Source of the DNA: a virus | Taxonomy: Duplodnaviria; Caudoviricetes | Strand: one strand, 5' to 3' | IMG/VR virus record: IMGVR_UViG_3300032327_000953 | Coordinates: 128,001-192,000 of that record | DNA: 64,000 nucleotides | Part shown: positions 4,240 to 45,326 of the stretch, piece after piece | Layout of the letters: every line of letters begins with the position of its first letter | Numbering within the stretch: position 1 is the stretch's first letter | Made by a program: the position numbers and the translations under genes | Notes under the pieces: generated by a model | What the model saw: only the letters and a program-made list of their open reading frames with translations | The model's database searches: none | What the model was told of the DNA's origin: nothing

Positions 4240-4452
4240 ATGAAGTATGTGCTAATGATTGTTCTTTCACTAGTTTCGGCAACATCATTTGCTGGAGAGT
4301 GTGCTACTGGTAATTGCTCTTTGCGTAGTCGAGTAGTTAATGTTACACGCGAAGTTATTAGCGTACCAGTAGAAGTAACACGTCGAACTGTTGAGGCTAC
4401 TCGTAATGTTGGTCGCAGAACTGTGGCCCGCGTTCGTAGTGTTGTTCGATAA
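4240..4452 (+). CDS. small secreted Arg/Val-rich protein
   Basis: Signal peptide MKYVLMIVLSLVSATSFA, CxxxxC motif, AAGGAG RBS. Confidence 0.65.
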   Translation: MKYVLMIVLSLVSATSFAGECATGNCSLRSRVVNVTREVISVPVEVTRRTVEATRNVGRRTVARVRSVVR

Positions 4453-4603
4453 CAATATAATCATGGTTGATAATCAAAAGGGTCAGGAAGAACTTGTTTG
4501 ATTATAGATCATAAAGAAAAGATAAATCCCCCGATGCCTCTTAACAATGCACACTTTCGGGGGTCTTTTCTTGAATATACATTTTTTACTCAAGGAGGAA
4601 CTT

Positions 4604-4948
4604 ATGAAGATTTTTATAATGTCAATTGCACTAGTTTTTGTCATTACTTTTACCGCAGAGGCGGCTCGACCAAAATATTATAGTCAGTCAAATACTATGG
4701 TAGGAACTTATACTAGTAGTCATGGTTCAAGCAGTGATCAGGATCGTTGTCAAGCAGAGGCTAATCATATGGCAGCTAATAACATTACTGGTCATGTGTG
4801 GAGTGTTATTGGAAATTTTGAAGGAGTAGGTTATGGTTCGTCTCCCAATTGTAATACTTGTACTCCAAGTGGTAATATGAGACTAACAGGAGATGCTTCA
4901 GCAAAAGGTGGTAATGGTAAATGGTATAGAGTAAGGTCTTGGAGATAA
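4604..4948 (+). CDS. secreted Cys-containing protein, possibly a minimal CAP/SCP-like domain
   Basis: Signal peptide, GH...FEGVG...C..C...WYRV pattern; AAGGAGG RBS before ATG 4604. Confidence 0.55.
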   Translation: MKIFIMSIALVFVITFTAEAARPKYYSQSNTMVGTYTSSHGSSSDQDRCQAEANHMAANNITGHVWSVIGNFEGVGYGSSPNCNTCTPSGNMRLTGDASAKGGNGKWYRVRSWR

Positions 4949-30206: not shown

Positions 30207-30559
30207 GGGCTAGTAAAGGTATCGACAGGTAAAATAGGTATAGATTGCATCGACTGGTTAATCGACCGGCCAGTTTAAAAGTCGATTAAAATTGTTAATT
30301 GGCGAAGTTTCAACTCTCGCTCTCGCTGCCTAATTAATTAGGTAATGAGTGGGGCGGCATGAGCCTTATTACCAAATCATGCTGACTCCGATATTCGGAT
30401 ATGGTAGTCCTACCAGACATAAATAGGAATGATGATTGTACTCAATCTGACGCAGATAATTCTGATAGCTTTGTTGGTAGTGTGATAACAATCAACTAAC
30501 GATGTAGAAGTTTATATTGATGTTTATTCTGGACGGCAGTTCGACTCTGCCCTAGTCCA
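30207..30559 (+). ncRNA. ssrA: tmRNA
   Basis: Acceptor GGGCTAG/CTAGTCC-A with G3.U70, TCGAC after the D-like loop, T-arm GGCAG-TTCGACT-CTGCC, tag ORF GGC GAA GTT TCA ACT CTC GCT CTC GCT GCC TAA (30301-30333; GEVSTLALAA). Confidence 0.93.
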
Positions 30560-30613
30560 CTTAATTTAGCTCTTGTCCATGTTTTGGTGTAAAGATATGT
30601 ACAGGAGACAACT

Positions 30614-31507: not shown

Positions 31508-32842
31508 ATGCTAAAATTTTGGAAAACACAGGAGAAATTGGAAATGTCATTTGAGCATCTGAGCGGTTTTGTTAGTGATCTGAAAGCAACTAGTAGTACG
31601 ATTGACAAAGTTGGAATTATTGAGGACTATACCTCTTCCAATAAGGCTGGAGCAGATTTTATCAAAAAGATTCTACTTTATACATACCATCCTCTTTGGC
31701 AGTATAATGTGACTAGTGACAATCTTAAAAAGAAGTCCTCTCTTAGAGGCAAATCACACAAGACTATTTTTGATTTGTTGGATTCTTTGAAGAATAGGGA
31801 AGTTACGGGGCATGATGCTATCGGAGCAGTTAATACTTTCATCGACAATAATGGACACGAAGAACTGATTCACTGCATAATTGATAAAGATTTGAAAACC
31901 CGTGCTGGAGATAAGCTTATCAATAAGGCTATTCCAGATCATATTCCCACATTTAGCGTTGCTCTTGCCGATAAATATGTTTCTAAAATTGTAGACTGGA
32001 AGGATGGATGGTATGTTAGCAGGAAGATCGACGGTGCTAGATGCGTTGCTATTGTTGACAGTAATAGCAATGCTACCTTTTATTCCCGCACGGGAAAAAA
32101 CTTTGATACTCTTGATATTGTTAGCGGTGGCATTAAAGCTTTGGGACTTACTAATGTAGTTCTTGATGGAGAGCTTTGTCTTGTTGATGAAGATGGTAAT
32201 GAGGATTTTCAAGGAGTAATGAAAGAACTTCGTAAGAAAGATCATACTATTCCTAATCCTTCATATAAAATCTTTGATATGATTACTCATGATGAGTTTT
32301 ATAGTCAGAAGGGAGAAAAGAATAGACCATTCGGTATTAGACTCAAGAATCTTACAGAGATTATGAAGAAGAACGAATGTCCATGCTTGACACTTTTGGA
32401 ACAGTCTTTGATTAAGGACGAAAACCATTTTCAAGAATTTGTTAAAGAATCTACTCAAAATGGCTGGGAGGGATTGATGCTTCGTGCCGACACTCCATAT
32501 AAAGGAAAACGATCCAAAGACCTACTAAAGTATAAATCATTTTTTGATGACGAATATGAAGTTCTCGACACTGAAATGGGGCCATTCCGCTATGTTAAGA
32601 ATGGTGCAGAATGTGAGGAGACTATGTTGAGTTGTGTTATGATTCAACATAAGGGTCATACTGTCAGGGTGGGTTCTGGTTTTAGTATTGATCAAAGACA
32701 GGAGTTTTATAAGAACCCTAAGAAAATTCTTGGTAAGATCATTTTGGTACAATATTTCGAGGAGACAGAGAATGAAAAAGGTGGTATCTCTTTGAGGTTT
32801 CCAACATTCAAATATCTATATGGAGATTCTAGAGATACATAA
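31508..32842 (+). CDS. ATP-dependent DNA ligase
   Basis: Motif I RKIDGAR, LDGELC, YKIFD, WEGLMLR, LLKYK, OB-fold VGSGFS and SLRFP. Confidence 0.95.
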   Translation: MLKFWKTQEKLEMSFEHLSGFVSDLKATSSTIDKVGIIEDYTSSNKAGADFIKKILLYTYHPLWQYNVTSDNLKKKSSLRGKSHKTIFDLLDSLKNREVTGHDAIGAVNTFIDNNGHEELIHCIIDKDLKTRAGDKLINKAIPDHIPTFSVALADKYVSKIVDWKDGWYVSRKIDGARCVAIVDSNSNATFYSRTGKNFDTLDIVSGGIKALGLTNVVLDGELCLVDEDGNEDFQGVMKELRKKDHTIPNPSYKIFDMITHDEFYSQKGEKNRPFGIRLKNLTEIMKKNECPCLTLLEQSLIKDENHFQEFVKESTQNGWEGLMLRADTPYKGKRSKDLLKYKSFFDDEYEVLDTEMGPFRYVKNGAECEETMLSCVMIQHKGHTVRVGSGFSIDQRQEFYKNPKKILGKIILVQYFEETENEKGGISLRFPTFKYLYGDSRDT

Positions 32843-34064: not shown

Positions 34065-34787
34065 TTGGAACCAAACTTTGAGGACAAGATGACAGAGCAA
34101 GTTATTGAGAAAAAGCCGATTGTTATGAGTACGAGCAAGGCCGACGAGTTTTTTAAGAATTTCCCCAAGGATAAAGTAGTTGCTTATAAAGACTATTGGG
34201 AAAGCGTTCGCCCCAAGACTGACGAAGATATTTTTCGTCGATATCTTTTTGCGTACTGTTCAGTCCATACCACTTGGCAGGGCAACGTAAAGGGATACAA
34301 TGCTATCAAGAATTTTAATGAATGGATAGACAGTAAAGAAATTCTTTTGACAAAACTTCACAAGAGCGGCGTTGGTCTACACAATAATCGCACCAACTAT
34401 ATCTGGGATTTCAGCACCAAGTTTTGGGCTAATCCTAAAGATTTTTATCTTACTACCAAAAAGTATCATGTTAAAAAGCGTGACAGTATTCTGAATAAGA
34501 TTAGCGGAATTGGCCTAGCTAAAATTAGCTTTGCATTGGAGATGGTTCATCCTAATGAGGCTAGAGTATTGTGTGGAGACATTCATCAGCTTCGACTTTA
34601 CGATGTAGAGGCTTTGAAATATAATAAGAGTAAGTCTGGTTCCGAAATCTATAAAAAGATGGAGAGGCACTGGATAGTTAATTGTGGAAAACTTAAAGTT
34701 CCTTCTTATGTTGCACGATCTATCTATTGGGATGATCTTCAAAAGAAGGAAGATAGTCGCTACTGGAGTTATGTTCTGGAGAGTTAA
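34065..34787 (+). CDS. HhH-type DNA glycosylase/AP lyase-like protein (Ogg-like)
   Basis: ISGIGLAKIS (HhH with Lys) and GDIHQLR; start probably ATG 34089. Confidence 0.6.
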   Translation: MEPNFEDKMTEQVIEKKPIVMSTSKADEFFKNFPKDKVVAYKDYWESVRPKTDEDIFRRYLFAYCSVHTTWQGNVKGYNAIKNFNEWIDSKEILLTKLHKSGVGLHNNRTNYIWDFSTKFWANPKDFYLTTKKYHVKKRDSILNKISGIGLAKISFALEMVHPNEARVLCGDIHQLRLYDVEALKYNKSKSGSEIYKKMERHWIVNCGKLKVPSYVARSIYWDDLQKKEDSRYWSYVLES

Positions 34788-37127: not shown

Positions 37128-37745
37128 ATGGATACGATAGTTGGTCAGAAAGTATTCTTTACTGCTGATCTTCACCTTGGACATAGAAATATCATAGGAT
37201 ATTGTAATCGTCCTTTTTCTAGTGGTGGAGAAATGGATGCTAAAATTATTTCTTCTATAAACGAAACTGTTGGACAAAACGATATTCTTTATATTATAGG
37301 AGATTTCTGCCATAAGGGTGGAACTGCTCTATCTTATAGAGAAAGAATAGTTTGTGAGAATGTTCATATTATTCTTGGTAATCATGATGAGCCAACCAAA
37401 TTCACTAGTGGATTTTCTAGTGTCTCTGATCAGAAAATGATTCTGTATATTAATCAAAAAATATTTATGTGCCATTATCCTATGAGAAGTTGGTCTGGTA
37501 GCTATAGAAAAAGCTGGATGCTATATGGTCATGTTCATGGTAGACTTCATCGTGAGGACGTTGCTTCTGGAACGCTCACGCTTGATGTAGGCGTGGATAA
37601 TAAAAGAGATGGGGTAGAGTTTGGTACTCCTTGGAGTTTTAAAGACGTTCAACAACAATTTCTGGCGAGAACGAAAAAAATTTCAAGGTCGCCCATTGAC
37701 AATGACGATACTCTGTTGTACAATCGAAGGAACAACGCGAGGTAA
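37128..37745 (+). CDS. calcineurin-like metallophosphoesterase
   Basis: TADLHLGH, IGDF, LGNHD, CHYP, YGHVHG, DVGVD. Confidence 0.9.
   Translation: MDTIVGQKVFFTADLHLGHRNIIGYCNRPFSSGGEMDAKIISSINETVGQNDILYIIGDFCHKGGTALSYRERIVCENVHIILGNHDEPTKFTSGFSSVSDQKMILYINQKIFMCHYPMRSWSGSYRKSWMLYGHVHGRLHREDVASGTLTLDVGVDNKRDGVEFGTPWSFKDVQQQFLARTKKISRSPIDNDDTLLYNRRNNAR
37696..37724 (+). promoter_or_regulatory. sigma70-type promoter with GACGATA in the spacer
   Basis: TTGACA(37696-37701)-17 bp-TACAAT(37719-37724). Confidence 0.75.
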
Positions 37746-37804
37746 GATCAGTCGCCTGACTGAGCCTCATGTTGAAAGATTGGTTAAGAATTTGGAGGTT
37801 GATT

Positions 37805-38089
37805 ATGGCTGAAGTTACTACTACTGATAAGCAGAGTCGTGTTCGTTGTGATGATGATACTTTTCTTGAGGCAGTTTTTTCCAGCAAGACTTATGCTGAG
37901 ATTGCTGTAAAGACTGGTCAGAAGGTTGCTAGTACGATGGCTCGTTATGCTCGTACAAAGGCTGCTCTTGCTAAGAAGGGTATTGACCTTCCTGCGATGG
38001 AACGAGCAAAGCCTGTTAAGACTGTGGATAATGTCGAAGCTATGGCTGAGACTGTTCGCCGCCTAAAGGCTGCTCATTCTAACGGCTGA
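37805..38089 (+). CDS. small basic protein, possible HTH DNA-binding protein
   Basis: TYAEIAVKTG helix pattern; GGAGG RBS before ATG 37805. Confidence 0.5.
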   Translation: MAEVTTTDKQSRVRCDDDTFLEAVFSSKTYAEIAVKTGQKVASTMARYARTKAALAKKGIDLPAMERAKPVKTVDNVEAMAETVRRLKAAHSNG

Positions 38090-38196
38090 GTTTTAGTGTA
38101 AACCAAATGCTTCCAACTACATCCCTCATAAAAATTAGTAGAGACACATAGACAAACATCTAACTAATTGTTATGATATGTAGCTTGGAGGTATAC

Positions 38197-38471
38197 GGGA
38201 GCGTAATCCAATGGCAGAGATAAAGGACTTATACAATTTGAGTGCGTAAAGAGAAATCTTTAATGTAGAACCTGTCAAATTCGGTGGAGGCTTAACTGCT
38301 AATACCGAGCCAAGCTTAATAGAAATATTATGAAGGTGTAGAGACTTGACGGCAGGAACCTAAAACGAAAGTTATGGTTAAGATAAAGTCCAGACCACAA
38401 ACAGAAATGGTAGTGAAAACTATAGTGGTAAGAAAATCCTTCAAGTGTGGGTTCGAGTCCCACCGCTCCTA
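38197..38471 (+). tRNA. tRNA-Leu(TAA) interrupted by a group I intron (exons 38197-38230 and 38433-38471)
   Basis: Spliced: GGGAGCG..AAGGA-CTT|AAAA-TCCTT-CAAGT-GTGGG-TTCGAGT-CCCAC-CGCTCCT-A. Confidence 0.9.
38231..38432 (+). mobile_element. group I self-splicing intron (IC3-like), 202 nt, no ORF
   Basis: P1 ACTT/GAGT with U.G at the 5' splice site; P CAAATTCGGTGGA, Q AATACCGAGCCAAG, R GTAGAGACTTGACGG, S AAGATAAAGTCCAG; terminal G. Confidence 0.9.
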
Positions 38472-38924
38472 CTTATTTTTTCCACGATAATTATCGGTTA
38501 AGGCATGACAGTTTGGGCAAAGTAAAATTAGATTAGTTAACTCATTATTATAATGATCTCCGTCAATATGATGGAGTTCTAGAGGTATAGAGTGATTTAA
38601 CCATTTGGTTTGTTTGCATTTAGAACACTTATGTTCAAAAACATTCTCAGATAATAATCTTTTCTTTAGCCTAAAACTCTGAACAACAGAATTCTTAGTG
38701 AGATAAAAATGGACAGGTTTTTTAGGGCCAGTAATTTTTCCTTTATTCCAAGACTGACCGCCGAAATGAGAAGTATCAATACTATATTTAGATATTCTTC
38801 TTTTAACTGTTTGATAATTACCTCCCGCTGGAACAATACCAAGTTTATCTAATACTTGTCTAATTGAACGAGAATTTTGAACAGCATTTTTGAGATCATC
38901 GACCGAATATTTATGTCTTTCCAT
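38469..38924 (-). CDS. free-standing HNH endonuclease
   Basis: CSKC...LELHHIDGDHYNNELTNLILLCPNCH; stop codon overlaps the tRNA-Leu 3' end. Confidence 0.9.
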   Translation of the reverse strand: MERHKYSVDDLKNAVQNSRSIRQVLDKLGIVPAGGNYQTVKRRISKYSIDTSHFGGQSWNKGKITGPKKPVHFYLTKNSVVQSFRLKKRLLSENVFEHKCSKCKQTKWLNHSIPLELHHIDGDHYNNELTNLILLCPNCHALTDNYRGKNK

Positions 38925-40153
38925 AGTTGACTCCTTGATAGGTATAGGCTATGATAGTAGTACACCAAAGCGTTTGCAGGATATAAAATCTTATGACATT
39001 CGACCACTGGATAAATGAAGTTGAAGGATATAGCGTTAGGCACGAAAGAGCTATAAGCGACATAAGAAATTGTGTTGCAAAAGGTAAAACTGACGATATA
39101 ATCAAGTGGTTGATGGCAGCTTATGCTATGGGCCATGAACAAGGTTATGATACTGGACATTATGATGGTAAGAAAGATTGCAAAGAACATTTTGATGAAT
39201 ATGGATGGGTATAATTATGAAAATCCACAACAAAACACACATTACTTTAACTCTTGATGATATTGAAAAAGCTATTGAAAGATATATTGACAGCGAGATT
39301 ATTGAAGCACCCAATGGTTTAGATATCAAGTTTATAGTTCATGATGTTTACCAGAAAGATAGTTTAACCGGATATTACAAGTCTGAATTTGTTGGTGCTG
39401 AAGTTACAATAAAGGACGATGTTTGATTGAAGAATATGAGAATTGGGAAGATGGTATAAGAAGGACATTTATAGAATTAGCAACTTATATGGAAAAAAAT
39501 GCAGATCCTATTGATTATTTGATCGAATTTGCTTGGGCAAATGGTGCTGATCGTTTTGTGGTAAATAATGCCAAAGACGAACTAAAGAAACTAAAAGACA
39601 AAAATAAAGAACTGGCTCTTGAGGCTTTTAAAGCTAATGAATTTGCACTAGCAGAAACTAATCGTTGGCTTAGTTGTGAAAAAGAAATAGCACAATTTAA
39701 AAAAGCTATGTCCAATCCTGTTGCTTGGGCTAGGATTAATGATCGTGGAGATTTGTTTGATCTTAGACTTCAAAACAATCCTTATATTGATCAGGATACT
39801 GTGGTTCCCCTATATAGGAAATAAAATGAGACCAAGAGGAAATAGATTATGTCGAGCAGAAGTTAAGAATCATAATCCTAAATCTCCGATAGATACCTTC
39901 GTTCTTGTTACAGTAAGAGAATTTAATGATGATGAGGGCGGCACATACATAGACGAGATCAATACTGCTGCTCAATTTCTAGCAACTGAGAGCGAGGCTT
40001 ATGATGAGCCGTTCTATCAGATTTATGGTAAGAGATATATGGATGATATAATGTCTGGCCCGATGTTTCTTGGAGAGTTTTACGATCTAGACAAGGCTCT
40101 TAATTTTCTTTACTATTTAACTGGCGAAGAAGCACAAGTTATTTCTTATTGAT

Positions 40154-41655: not shown

Positions 41656-44331
41656 ATGAAGTTGGCAGATAGGACGATTGAGACTCATAGCGTTGGTGTT
41701 GCAAGTAGGAATCAGTTTAACATTGCTCAGACGAGCAAAATGTTTAAAATCCTTTCGGACTCTTTGTATTCTGATAAGGTTATGGCTGCAATCCGTGAGC
41801 TTTCTACAAATGCTTATGATAGTCATATCTCTGCCGGGAATAAGAATCCCTTTAAGGTTACTCTACCCACTGCGGCCAATCCTAACTTTATGGTGAGGGA
41901 TTATGGTACTGGTCTTAGTCAGGCCGATATGGAGGATTTGTATACAACTTATGGAGCATCAAACAAGAATGATAGTAATGATTTTGTTGGTTGTCTTGGT
42001 CTAGGGTCTAAGAGTCCGTTCGCTTACACCAAGAGCTTCACTACTGCATCATACTTCAACGGAAAGAAATATACCTATATTGCGGCGATTGACGAGAGTG
42101 GAGTTCCTACCCTTAATCTTTTCAATACTTCAAATACGTCTGAGCCTAATGGTCTTGAGATTAGTTTTGCTGTTAAGCAACATGACTTTCAAGAGTTCAC
42201 AGATAAGGCTAAGAGAATCTTCCACTATTTCCGCATGAAACCCATCCTTGAAGGTGGTATTGGGAATAATTTGCAAGATCATAAGTATAGCAATACCAAT
42301 ATTATTATCAGTGGTGAAGGTTGGCGTGTTTGCCGACTCAATAATGATAACAACTATTTTCCTAATGGTTATCATCGAATTGATAGTGGTATTGTGGCTA
42401 TTATGGGCAATATTGCCTATCCTGTTCAGACCGCACAAATTGTTGGTCAGGAAAAGGAGGAGATGCCCGATCATATTCAGAAGTGGAATAGAGCTTTCCA
42501 GAAGGCAGATATTGATTCTTGGAAGAGCTTTGTGAGCGAGATCATTAACTCTGGTCTTTATCTTGAGCTTGATTTTGGTATCGGTGAACTGGAAATGGAC
42601 GTTTCCCGTGAAGGTTTGCAGTATACTAAAGATGTGATCAAGACTCTGCGTAAAAAGACTCAAGAAATTTACATGGAGATGAAGGAAGAATTCTCCAAGA
42701 AAATTAAATCTGCCCAGAATAAAGTGGAAGCAATTACTTCATACTATACTATGAATGAATTGGCTGGCGGCTGGGGTGTTGGTGCAACTTGGACTGATCC
42801 CAAGGGTAAAGATCATCCCATCAACTCTGGCAACGATCTGGAATATAAAATTTCTGCTGGCAAGAGTCTGTACGTTTTTAATTATAAGACTGCTGGCTAT
42901 CGTTCTCGTCGCCAAGTTGCTCTGACAGACAAAATCCACCATGAAACTCTTACTGGTAAAGGTTCCTACTATTGGAATAATCAGAAGAAGAAGGGTAAGA
43001 TGAGTTTCTTTGTGTGCGATGTTGCTAGTGAAGAAAGTGCCAAGAAAATTCTTACGAAGTATTGTAATCTAAATGATTGTTTTGCGTATCTCTTGATCGA
43101 CACTAAAGATCATACAAAAAGTGGAGAAGGTTTTGATCAACTGATCGAAGATGTTGGGGCTGAAAATCTGCTCAAGGTTTCAGACTATAAGCATCTGACG
43201 CAAAGTTCTGGCCCAAGAAAATCTTACAATAGAAATTCTAATGGTAGTGTCAGCGATCAAGACGTATTCTTTATCTACGGTTATGATAAGGATAGTAAGC
43301 AAATTACAAATCCTTATAATGATGCCACTCACCTGAGGATTCTTTCAGAAGAACAACTAGAGAACTTTCTGGAACAAGATGAGATTGTTTATATCCCCAT
43401 GTTGAGATATGGAACAGAACCTGAGTCTGGTTGCCCAGATATTGCTGGTATCACTAGAACTCTCCAAGAAGATACTCTAAAGAGTATAACAAAAGATTTG
43501 ATTGGCAATAGTAAGATTTATGCTATCAAAACAGCTTTCGTTAAAAAGCTTGAGAAGGATGGTTATAATCTTGTTAACTTCAATGACTTTTTGAAGCGTC
43601 AACTCAAAGTTGTAGCACAAAAACACTTTAAGAATCTTGGCTCTATCAACAAGCTTGTTGAATATTGCAAGAAGGATTATGCAACAGAGGAGAAGAATGG
43701 TGGAGGGTATCGGTATTATCAACACGGAACAACAGATAAGCAGTTTATGTTTCATATACTGAATATTTTTGGTCTGGATTATGATAAGTTTATCAATAAC
43801 AAGACTCTTGTGGATTGCTTGAATAAAACTATCCTTACAGAGTTCTTTGCCAATACTGTTCATGTCAGTCCTTTTAATATTCCTCGATTCAGTCAAACAG
43901 AATATCTCTCCCATATCTCTAAGCTTATGAAAGAGGCGGGAATTGATAATGTGGATGGCAAGGAAATTCGTAATGCTAATTTGGCCTACAATACCTTGAC
44001 AAACATGATTGTTAATTACTTGTATTCTGGGAATAATAATGCAGAGGCTTATCTGAAGATCATTCGTGGAACTTCTGAGGAAGATTTGAAGAGATGGAAA
44101 ATCTCTGAGATTAGGGAAAAGATTAAGACTGAGGTAGACAAGAATCCTATGCTCAAACTTATTATGGGAAATCATCAAGTTACAGGCAATCTGGTAGATC
44201 TTAAATCTAATCAGAATCCTATCATTGAAGATCGCTCATACTATGGAAAGCAGAGCAGAGATTGGGTCGAGCAGATGAGCCAGGAAAATATTGATTTGTT
44301 TAGGATTCAGTTGAGCAGTTTGATCAAGTAG
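41656..44331 (+). CDS. rIIA: rIIA-like protein (N-terminal GHKL/HSP90-type ATPase)
   Basis: ILSDSLYSDK..AIRELSTNAYDSH, VRDYGTG, GCLGLGSKSPFAY, DVSREGL; followed by rIIB. Confidence 0.9.
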   Translation: MKLADRTIETHSVGVASRNQFNIAQTSKMFKILSDSLYSDKVMAAIRELSTNAYDSHISAGNKNPFKVTLPTAANPNFMVRDYGTGLSQADMEDLYTTYGASNKNDSNDFVGCLGLGSKSPFAYTKSFTTASYFNGKKYTYIAAIDESGVPTLNLFNTSNTSEPNGLEISFAVKQHDFQEFTDKAKRIFHYFRMKPILEGGIGNNLQDHKYSNTNIIISGEGWRVCRLNNDNNYFPNGYHRIDSGIVAIMGNIAYPVQTAQIVGQEKEEMPDHIQKWNRAFQKADIDSWKSFVSEIINSGLYLELDFGIGELEMDVSREGLQYTKDVIKTLRKKTQEIYMEMKEEFSKKIKSAQNKVEAITSYYTMNELAGGWGVGATWTDPKGKDHPINSGNDLEYKISAGKSLYVFNYKTAGYRSRRQVALTDKIHHETLTGKGSYYWNNQKKKGKMSFFVCDVASEESAKKILTKYCNLNDCFAYLLIDTKDHTKSGEGFDQLIEDVGAENLLKVSDYKHLTQSSGPRKSYNRNSNGSVSDQDVFFIYGYDKDSKQITNPYNDATHLRILSEEQLENFLEQDEIVYIPMLRYGTEPESGCPDIAGITRTLQEDTLKSITKDLIGNSKIYAIKTAFVKKLEKDGYNLVNFNDFLKRQLKVVAQKHFKNLGSINKLVEYCKKDYATEEKNGGGYRYYQHGTTDKQFMFHILNIFGLDYDKFINNKTLVDCLNKTILTEFFANTVHVSPFNIPRFSQTEYLSHISKLMKEAGIDNVDGKEIRNANLAYNTLTNMIVNYLYSGNNNAEAYLKIIRGTSEEDLKRWKISEIREKIKTEVDKNPMLKLIMGNHQVTGNLVDLKSNQNPIIEDRSYYGKQSRDWVEQMSQENIDLFRIQLSSLIK

Positions 44332-44426: not shown

Positions 44427-45326
44427 ATGGCTGTTCCGTTTATGTTTGTGGATGGTAATTTGACACTGGTTCTTAATAACCAGAGTTATCAGGTATTGCC
44501 AGATCATATCAACTATAAGTTGATTCTGGAAAGACTTCCTACTGCTACGGCAGAGGAACTATTGGAAGTTGTTGATGTTCAAAAGGCTGTTGCTACTTTC
44601 AGCGATGGTCTTGTGGAGATCAAGAACGGTCAGGTTCTCTACGAGGGCGAGGAAGTTCATGGTAGTATTAGTAAGCGTATTCTGGAGTTTATGAGCAAGG
44701 GATTGCCGTTTCAGCCCCTCGTTAATTTCCTGAATAATCTCATGGAAAATCCAAGTATGCAGAGTCAGAAGGAACTGTATGATTTCTTGGAACATGAACA
44801 TCTGCCTATCACAGAGGATGGTTTCTTCCTCGCTTATAAGGCTGTTCGTTCAGACTTTAAGGATAAGTATAGAGGAGTTTTTGACAATAGAGTTGGTCAG
44901 GTCTGCGAGATGCAACGAGCAAAGGTTGACGATGATCGTGGTCGTGGTTGCTCTAATGGACTTCATGCTGGTGCATTGAACTATGTTGCCAACTATGGTA
45001 GTCTTGAGGCTGGAGATAAGATTGTTATTGTCAAGATTAATCCCAAGGATGTTGTTAGCGTTCCTAGTGATTGCAACTATGAAAAGCTTCGCACTTGCCG
45101 CTACGAAGTAGTTGGTGAGTATGAGGGCGAATTGCTTAAGCCTCTTTATAAGGCTGATTTTAGTCAGGATGATTACGAGGATGATGAGGATGATTATCTG
45201 AATGACTACGATGAAAGCTATTGGGATCAGTTTGATGAGGAAGATGAGGATGAAGATGAGGACGATGATCTCGTTGGCGATGAAGATGATTCGGATTTCG
45301 ATAATGGACACTACGGAAATCATTGA
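44427..45326 (+). CDS. rIIB: rIIB-like protein with acidic C-terminal tail
   Basis: NPS...ELYDFL...PITEDG.FLAYK.V, CSNGLH, VKINPKDVVSVP.D...KLRTCRYEV. Confidence 0.9.
   Translation: MAVPFMFVDGNLTLVLNNQSYQVLPDHINYKLILERLPTATAEELLEVVDVQKAVATFSDGLVEIKNGQVLYEGEEVHGSISKRILEFMSKGLPFQPLVNFLNNLMENPSMQSQKELYDFLEHEHLPITEDGFFLAYKAVRSDFKDKYRGVFDNRVGQVCEMQRAKVDDDRGRGCSNGLHAGALNYVANYGSLEAGDKIVIVKINPKDVVSVPSDCNYEKLRTCRYEVVGEYEGELLKPLYKADFSQDDYEDDEDDYLNDYDESYWDQFDEEDEDEDEDDDLVGDEDDSDFDNGHYGNH

Follow-up and report, generated by a model that had tools for sequence, protein, structure and literature searches.

Textbooks present the group I intron of tRNA-Leu(UAA) in bacteria and plastids as the prime case of an old intron that does not move. 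To our knowledge its classical form lacks an endonuclease and is taken to be immobile. In phages, group I introns have been described in protein-coding genes, and a 2014 review of these introns also describes collaborative homing (PMC3984707), of which MobE with the nrdB intron of T4 (PMC2790892) and F-CphI with the psbA intron of cyanophage S-PM2 (PMC6083498) are known pairs. Free-standing homing endonuclease genes are also found among phage tRNA genes, such as SegB (GIY-YIG) in T4 and F-TflI/II/IV (HNH) in T5. SegB, which recognises the T-arm conserved across many tRNAs, cuts within tRNA genes and drives inheritance of the surrounding tRNA region (PMC2330249), and a 2026 study reports that it promotes the amplification of tRNA loci (PMC13096335). 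The 2014 review also cites I-Ssp6803I, a PD-(D/E)XK enzyme encoded in the group I intron of a Synechocystis tRNA-fMet gene (PMC3984707). Here we describe a jumbo phage locus in which a tRNA-Leu gene is interrupted by a small group I intron and adjoined by an HNH endonuclease gene. The locus lies in a stretch of 64,000 nucleotides, the whole of which we call the window, corresponding to bases 128001-192000 of IMG/VR record IMGVR_UViG_3300032327_000953; the record comprises 238,135 bp, is bounded by direct terminal repeats and has a G+C content of 35%. A literature search found no paper on this HNH family, nor any on phage tRNA genes with group I introns.

The locus resembles the MobE/nrdB and F-CphI/psbA pairs in that a free-standing endonuclease gene lies beside an endonuclease-less group I intron, with trans mobilisation and immunity of the intron-bearing allele as the predicted outcome. 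It differs from them in that the host gene is a tRNA gene instead of a protein gene, in that the endonuclease gene is convergent with the tRNA gene, whose end it overlaps, and in that the case made here is a comparative one. SegB is from a different nuclease family and works without an intron, whereas the family described here is specific to tRNA-Leu genes. I-Ssp6803I is intron-encoded and sits in a bacterial tRNA-fMet gene, whereas the HNH gene here stands beside the intron of a phage tRNA-Leu gene. We consider collaborative (trans) homing, in which two selfish elements would cooperate on the anticodon region of tRNA-Leu(UAA), to be the best explanation of the locus and on balance a probable one, with the amendment that the intron seems to spread further than the HNH gene and that both are often inherited apart. 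Both kinds of element are known; what the present locus adds is the pairing of an intron of type IC3 in tRNA-Leu, free of any open reading frame (ORF), with a convergent free-standing HNH gene, together with the population data.

When introns are allowed, ARAGORN calls a tRNA-Leu(taa) that spans 38197-38472 and is split by an intron of 202 nt between positions 34 and 35 ('gactt-Intron-aaaat'), which places the intron at the classical tRNA-Leu(UAA) insertion site, as the first-pass annotation of this DNA had stated. The coordinates and anatomy given there, a split tRNA with a 202-nt intron and an HNH gene, proved correct when compared with ARAGORN, Rfam and the list of ORFs. According to ARAGORN and intron-less sister alleles, the 5' exon on the plus strand (38197..38230, tRNA positions 1-34) ends in GGACUU, and the 3' exon on the same strand (38433..38471, positions 35-73) begins with AAAAUCC and ends in the discriminator A73 without an encoded CCA. 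The spliced sequence forms a cloverleaf with anticodon UAA and A73 in ARAGORN, and the predicted pre-tRNA must lose the intron to yield this 73-nt tRNA. Where alleles differ in the acceptor, D or T stem, the changes compensate each other, and the tRNA is therefore under selection. The variable loop of the window allele has only 5 nt and lacks the long arm (class II) usual for bacterial tRNA-Leu; sister alleles (L003, L010, L018) retain an arm of 13-15 nt. Because the long arm has been lost in the window allele, its likely leucine identity is read from the anticodon, A73 and descent. Default tRNA finding overlooks the intron-split gene at 38197-38471, so that the only UUA-reading tRNA of the phage stays unannotated. 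Neither another tRNA-Leu gene nor any other group I intron nor a second copy of the HNH gene was found in the whole phage genome, which thus holds a single intron of this kind and a single copy of this HNH gene. Calls of introns in tRNA-Phe, tRNA-Lys and tRNA-SeC that ARAGORN returned for some relatives were rejected as boundary artefacts after alignment.

The ORF-less, IC3-like intron of 202 nt occupies 38231..38432 on the plus strand and is supported by Rfam, RNAalifold and a manual model. The Rfam family Intron_gpI (RF00028) matches 38220-38414 over its entire model (1-253) with 55.4 bits and an E value of 2e-11, the gathering score being 50 bits, and the conserved core stretches AAAUUCGGUG, AAUACCGAG, GUAGAGACUUGACGG and AAGAUAAAGUCC are all present in the intron. 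We aligned 37 distinct ORF-less relatives drawn from viral contigs and assemblies (alignment A1). RNAalifold, which is blind to group I architecture, recovered P2, P3, P4, P5, P8 and P9 together with two small P9 hairpins from this alignment; 18 of 52 pairs are compensatory, both sides having changed with pairing retained. A manual structure map following the Azoarcus/Anabaena layout adds P1, P10, P6/P6a and P7, and compensatory double changes are found in 17 of its 55 pairs. In this map the guide sequence GAGU (38240-38243) pairs with ACUU in P1, placing U38230.G38240 at the 5' splice site, and P10 is formed by 3 bp with UUU at 38237-38239. P2 (38247-38262) is followed by P3 (38271-38276 with 38351-38356), P4 (38280-38286 with 38303-38309), P5 (38289-38300), P6/P6a (38310-38336), P7 (38343-38347 with 38386-38390), P8 (38358-38378) and a three-way P9 (38395-38428), and the terminal G at 38432 precedes the 3' splice site. 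The splice-site U.G pair and the terminal G are kept in 35-37 of the 37 relatives. P7 is invariant across all of them and its covariation is consequently uninformative. GAAA loops cap P2, P6a, P8 and both P9 hairpins, and a CCUAAA/UAUGG motif in P8, read from the sequence, appears to resemble the 11-nt tetraloop receptor. Both boundaries are independently confirmed by sister alleles which lie 1 exon nt apart and differ in having or lacking the intron (L317 versus L289, L277 versus L278), the intron-less ones joining the exons precisely as CUU|AAAA. Since the Rfam match lies above the cut-off and 17-18 pairs are compensatory, we conclude that the intron is real, structurally intact and under selection as a ribozyme, with splicing itself being predicted.

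The HNH gene is located on the minus strand at 38469..38924 (ORF list) and encodes 151 aa. Its TAG stop, the complement of 38469-38471, overlaps tRNA positions 71-73, and a strong AAGGAG ribosome-binding site lies 7 nt 5' of the ATG. The protein matches PHROG 10822 with 1.7e-46, and residues C100, C103, H119, N131, C136, C139 and H140 are invariant in homologues down to 57% identity; because Pfam HNH families stay below threshold (18.7 bits versus a cut-off of 21), the assignment leans on PHROG 10822 and these motif residues. An AlphaFold2 model (predicted local distance difference test, pLDDT, of 87) shows three helices forming an N-terminal domain, which a flexible linker joins to a zinc-bound HNH domain at the C terminus, a predicted layout typical for modular homing endonucleases. 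A fold search of the model against the PDB gave nothing at E 0.001 and never aligned the two-domain model as a whole; its weak matches are HNH domains of the McrA/Cap5 type and one helix-turn-helix. PDB sequences searched with a profile yielded no match under E 0.1. Pairwise BLAST and junction sequences place the gene in a cassette (38472..38988, no strand assigned) that forms an insertion/deletion polymorphism of about 515 bp. In L141, L125, L127, L139, L093 and other relatives the cassette is replaced by a spacer of about 28 nt that separates the tRNA from the next gene, and cassette-less relatives align on both sides of it at 87-93% identity. This polymorphism, an exact presence or absence at the 3' end of the tRNA, supports the view that the HNH gene behaves as a free-standing homing endonuclease gene, and its reading as such in the first-pass annotation is upheld by the clean indel among close relatives. 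In relative L079 (2501-2692) only a remnant with residues 88-151, the last 64 codons, is left beside an intron-bearing tRNA, which fits the decay of an endonuclease gene.

Homologues of the HNH protein were collected from 79 viral loci of IMG/VR (38-98% identity). At about 71 of the 79 a tRNA(UAA) gene either lies at most 189 nt from the HNH gene or encloses it in its intron, in several arrangements. In the window and at many other loci the HNH gene is convergent, touches the tRNA 3' end and is accompanied by an intron of about 200 nt. Convergent copies beside intron-less genes are found in L006-9, L019, L033, L047/48 and L054, and copies on the same strand directly upstream of an intron-less tRNA gene in L049, L051-53 and others. 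At 13 loci the gene lies on the same strand inside the P1 loop of the intron, its ORF ending at the guide sequence TTGAGTGC, and in L029 it lies antisense inside the intron. As one family is found in the P1 loop, antisense in the intron and beside intron-less genes, several stages of association are visible together. In the protein tree the convergent copies form one clade (98/90), with intron-less cases nested within it at least four times; 'inside' and 'upstream' copies are intermixed across the other clades. The association extends to four cultured phages (L342-L345), whose HNH homologues (39-46% identical, annotated in these records merely as HNH endonuclease) directly adjoin tRNA-Leu genes: tRNA-Leu(CAA) in cyanophage S-CRM01, tRNA-Leu(UAA) in Klebsiella phage Muenster and tRNA-Leu(UAG) in both Citrobacter phage Michonne and Gordonia phage GodonK. 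A Saprospiraceae assembly (L205) carries a homologue within its tRNA-Leu(UAA) intron. These neighbourhoods support a family dedicated to tRNA-Leu genes.

We then compared the exon junctions of alleles with and without the two elements. All intron-bearing alleles have the junction (G/A)GACTT|AAAATC(C/T). Of alleles lacking both intron and HNH gene, 14 of 17 distinct sequences retain GGACTTAAAATCC (GGACTT|AAAATCC) uninterrupted (e.g. L275, L317), whereas none of the five distinct intron-less alleles beside a convergent HNH gene keeps GGACTT|AAAATCC intact. The latter carry AAACTTAAAATTT (e.g. L033), GCACTTAAAATGC or similar sequences, with the stem altered on both sides. The difference has a Fisher p of 0.002, on counts that are small and come from related alleles. 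Every allele beside a convergent HNH gene has either the intron or an altered anticodon stem, a pattern which fits immunity. It is expected if the HNH enzyme attacks the uninterrupted junction, because a carrier must then break the site by intron or by mutation. The earlier proposal that the intron protects its own allele agrees with this natural variation.

Frequencies of the two elements were determined in a neutral sample anchored on the upstream gene at 37769-38089. It comprises 68 usable loci, on contigs that are not independent of one another. The tRNA is always there, the intron is polymorphic and the HNH gene is rare: 35 loci have neither element, 29 the intron only, 4 both, and none the HNH gene only. 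Loci retrieved by the intron core gave 16 with and about 27 without the HNH gene. The co-occurrence expected by the first-pass annotation is seen in so far as the HNH gene in the neutral sample is found solely with the intron (4 versus 0), though the intron stands alone at 29 loci. Its further proposal, that the pair spreads together, is not supported in that form: these counts, and the differing histories of the two elements, indicate that they mostly do not.

These histories became apparent from pairwise comparisons. Relative L141 shares 87% identity in the flanks, 82-91% in the exons and 99.5% in the intron, and lacks the HNH gene; the excess of intron identity gives a Fisher p of 5e-10 against the flank, with a second Fisher value of 9e-6. 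With L014 the flanks are 88-91%, the exons 79%, the intron 89% and the HNH gene 95% identical; with L017 the flanks are 86-88%, the exons 100%, the intron 99% and the HNH gene 95% identical. Because the intron of another relative is 10% diverged, the near-identity with L141 indicates recent exchange and not constraint. Vertical inheritance with occasional intron loss was considered as a full account and is ruled out, the intron being far more alike than exons and flanks. As judged from these identities, HNH gene, intron and exons show separate histories and the locus is a mosaic.

Under collaborative homing the following course would be expected. In mixed infections the HNH enzyme would nick or cut tRNA-Leu(UAA) genes with an uninterrupted GGACTT/AAAATCC. 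Repair templated by the HNH-bearing genome would bring in the intron, which is located at the break; the HNH gene would be copied only if the conversion tract extended beyond the 39-bp 3' exon. Dividing the target site, the intron would spare its own genome from the enzyme and would hitch-hike on HNH-made breaks. Phages with the HNH gene and without the intron would escape through altered base pairs of the anticodon stem. The intron lies nearer to the break and should therefore become more widespread than the HNH gene; the observed frequencies agree with this. As to the suggestion in the first-pass annotation that the intron might act as a shield against host anticodon-targeting functions, the tRNA once spliced would be as exposed to host anticodon nucleases as any other.

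Several points weigh against this account. The association of HNH gene and intron in the neutral sample is borderline (Fisher p = 0.05, with non-independent contigs). All relatives are metagenomic assemblies, and assembly could explain some of the mosaicism; a chimeric assembly, however, would not give a near-identical middle between two equally diverged flanks. Intron-bearing alleles need GGACUU for P1 pairing regardless of any nuclease, and the target-site contrast could partly reflect this constraint and shared ancestry instead of selection by the HNH enzyme. In another HNH clade, whose members are 42-56% identical and lie upstream on the same strand, GGGACTTAAAATCCC is retained by some intron-less tRNAs next to the HNH gene (L057, L051, L052). 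By analogy with T4 SegB at the T-arm, the cut site could also lie elsewhere in the tRNA (PMC2330249). A different explanation treats the two elements as neighbours that act independently: the HNH gene would be an ordinary free-standing homing endonuclease gene for another part of the tRNA or its 3' flank, homing without an intron like T4 SegB or the F-Tfl enzymes of T5, the intron would have spread by other routes, for instance through HNH relatives encoded within introns, through reverse splicing or by general recombination, and adjacency would reflect a shared preference for tRNA-Leu. The intron is in fact about 7 times commoner alone than together with the HNH gene in the neutral sample, most loci found by the intron core lack the gene, the two histories differ, and the distant homologues of cultured phages stand beside intron-less tRNA-Leu genes, among them those with anticodons CAA and UAG; SegB, too, reads the T-arm and not the anticodon (PMC2330249). 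Independence does not account for the loss of the junction beside convergent HNH genes (0/5 versus 14/17) or for the confinement of the HNH gene to intron-bearing loci of the neutral sample (4 versus 0), and the intron-encoded homologues would be expected to cut at the insertion site. We hold mere neighbourhood to be rather unlikely.

Two further explanations take one of the elements to be incidental or inactive. The intron could be regulatory, gating or delaying the sole UUA-reading tRNA of the phage such that TTA-rich genes are translated later than those free of TTA, with the HNH gene being incidental. TTA makes up 37% of leucine codons genome-wide and 0 of 193 in seven genes including rIIA-like and rIIB-like ones, and tRNA(UAA) is the only tRNA-Leu of the phage. 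Yet 35 of the 68 syntenic relatives do without the intron, which makes it dispensable, and the TTA-free genes turn away from all A-ending codons (third-position G+C, GC3, of 0.38 versus 0.23), which could simply be early-gene adaptation to the host; a regulatory role of this kind is in our view improbable. Homing endonuclease genes commonly decay following fixation, and the HNH gene might accordingly be a decaying or re-purposed remnant that is inactive or serves local recombination or amplification at this locus. The truncated copy in L079 would suit such a fate, as would the promotion of tRNA-locus amplification by SegB (PMC13096335). The ORF of the window, however, is full length and preceded by its strong ribosome-binding site, and its zinc and catalytic residues are invariant down to 57% identity. 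The gene is also 95-98% identical between phages whose flanks share 88%, which points to its recent spread, and we consider a remnant very improbable indeed. Collaborative homing, amended as above, is the reading we retain for the locus.

How the phage intron relates to the classical one was examined in a tree of phage and bacterial introns. A core 21-mer, GGTGYAGAGACTYGACGGSAG, is common to the window intron and 120 bacterial loci, for the most part tRNA-Leu(UAA) genes of cyanobacteria, with tRNA(CAU) and tRNA-Leu(CAA) genes among the rest. Bacterial introns were chosen for the tree by this shared 21-mer, and its support and rooting are modest. Within it, 39 phage introns form one clade (98/98) and have two Bacteroidota tRNA-Leu(UAA) introns as nearest neighbours; this group joins the cyanobacterial clade with 81/94 under a midpoint root, the bootstrap not having settled. 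A phylogenetic comparison with cyanobacterial introns had been put forward in the first-pass annotation, and in this 21-mer-chosen, midpoint-rooted sample the phage intron falls beside tRNA-Leu(UAA) introns of Bacteroidota and cyanobacteria. It shares with the classical IC3 intron the insertion site, CUU/AAAA, and the core, and is set apart in the tree from the introns of tRNA(CAU) and tRNA-Leu(CAA). At 202 nt it is shorter than the introns called in the bacterial tRNA-Leu(UAA) genes sampled, which range from 214 to 441 nt. Unlike the classical intron it is phage-borne, belongs to a clade of its own with the two Bacteroidota introns, and is linked to a dedicated HNH family.

We thus find the same type of intron as in the textbook case, here in a phage tRNA gene and in a population with many coexisting states: intron-less, intron alone, intron with a free-standing nuclease gene, nuclease gene within the intron in sense or antisense, and intron-less with putative nuclease resistance. 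They provide a natural series for asking how endonuclease-free introns gain mobility and how genomes gain immunity to homing endonucleases, and both questions can be approached with a 13-bp target that is simple to synthesise. A wider and more doubtful reading is that the classical intron of tRNA-Leu(UAA) has a mobile form and that phages carry it, an idea we put forward only tentatively. It would need a dedicated HNH family cutting the anticodon DNA of tRNA-Leu genes, with introns encoding or riding on the HNH gene, and it would further need exchange between phage and host chromosomes, the Bacteroidota being the nearest sampled hosts. If true, phage-borne homing could explain the patchy bacterial spread of this supposedly immobile 'ancient' intron.

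Further intron-like sequences were noted in other phages. In the P9 region of the window intron, 46 nt (38388-38433) are 98% identical to the crAss-like phage cr111_1 (L002:1501-1546), where the match is located between a GIY-YIG intron-endonuclease gene and a replicative helicase gene. It was the only hit of a search for near-identical phage records. An Rfam scan of the cr111_1 locus gave no intron match at E < 0.01; the shared stretch suggests that intron modules may be common to the tRNA intron and a protein-gene intron. Among related contigs, L065 has an Rfam group I match of 70.7 bits (118-315) within a tRNA-Arg(UCU) called by ARAGORN with a 206-nt intron, in the related phage contig L067 a tRNA-Met(CAU) is called with an intron of 200 nt (2150-2423), and L066 has a second Rfam group I match of 65.9 bits (1245-1491). 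In L049 and L059 the same-strand HNH gene is followed by a complete tRNA-Leu(UAA) free of introns and preceded, some 60-100 nt before its start, by what resembles the 5' half of a different class II tRNA; a cassette of HNH gene plus tRNA seems to have been inserted into a tRNA gene. An HNH homologue in L076 adjoins a ROOL RNA (Rfam RF03087, 303.6 bits, 4285-4885) in a phage tRNA region.

In the window itself, the seven genes without a TTA codon include 41656-44331, 44427-45326, 31508-32842, 34065-34787 and 37128-37745, and the rIIA-like and rIIB-like genes among the seven are neighbours of the tRNA locus; in the remaining genome TTA accounts for 37-39% of leucine codons, and the shift extends to A-ending codons in general. 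Ten further phage tRNA genes form a cluster 33-42 kb upstream of tRNA(UAA). An abiF RNA motif near this tRNA cluster (4528-4564) scores 38.3 bits, barely over the Rfam cut-off of 37, and a transfer-messenger RNA is encoded at 30207-30562 (Rfam RF00023, 89.3 bits, full length). A consensus scan returned two sigma-70-like promoter candidates on the plus strand, both of which are pattern matches only. One (TAGACA-17-TGnTATGAT, 38149..38177) has 10 of 12 matches plus a TG extension and sits about 20 nt 5' of the tRNA. The other (38927..38955, 10 of 12 matches) lies within the HNH cassette and points toward a gene for 73 aa at 38993-39214.

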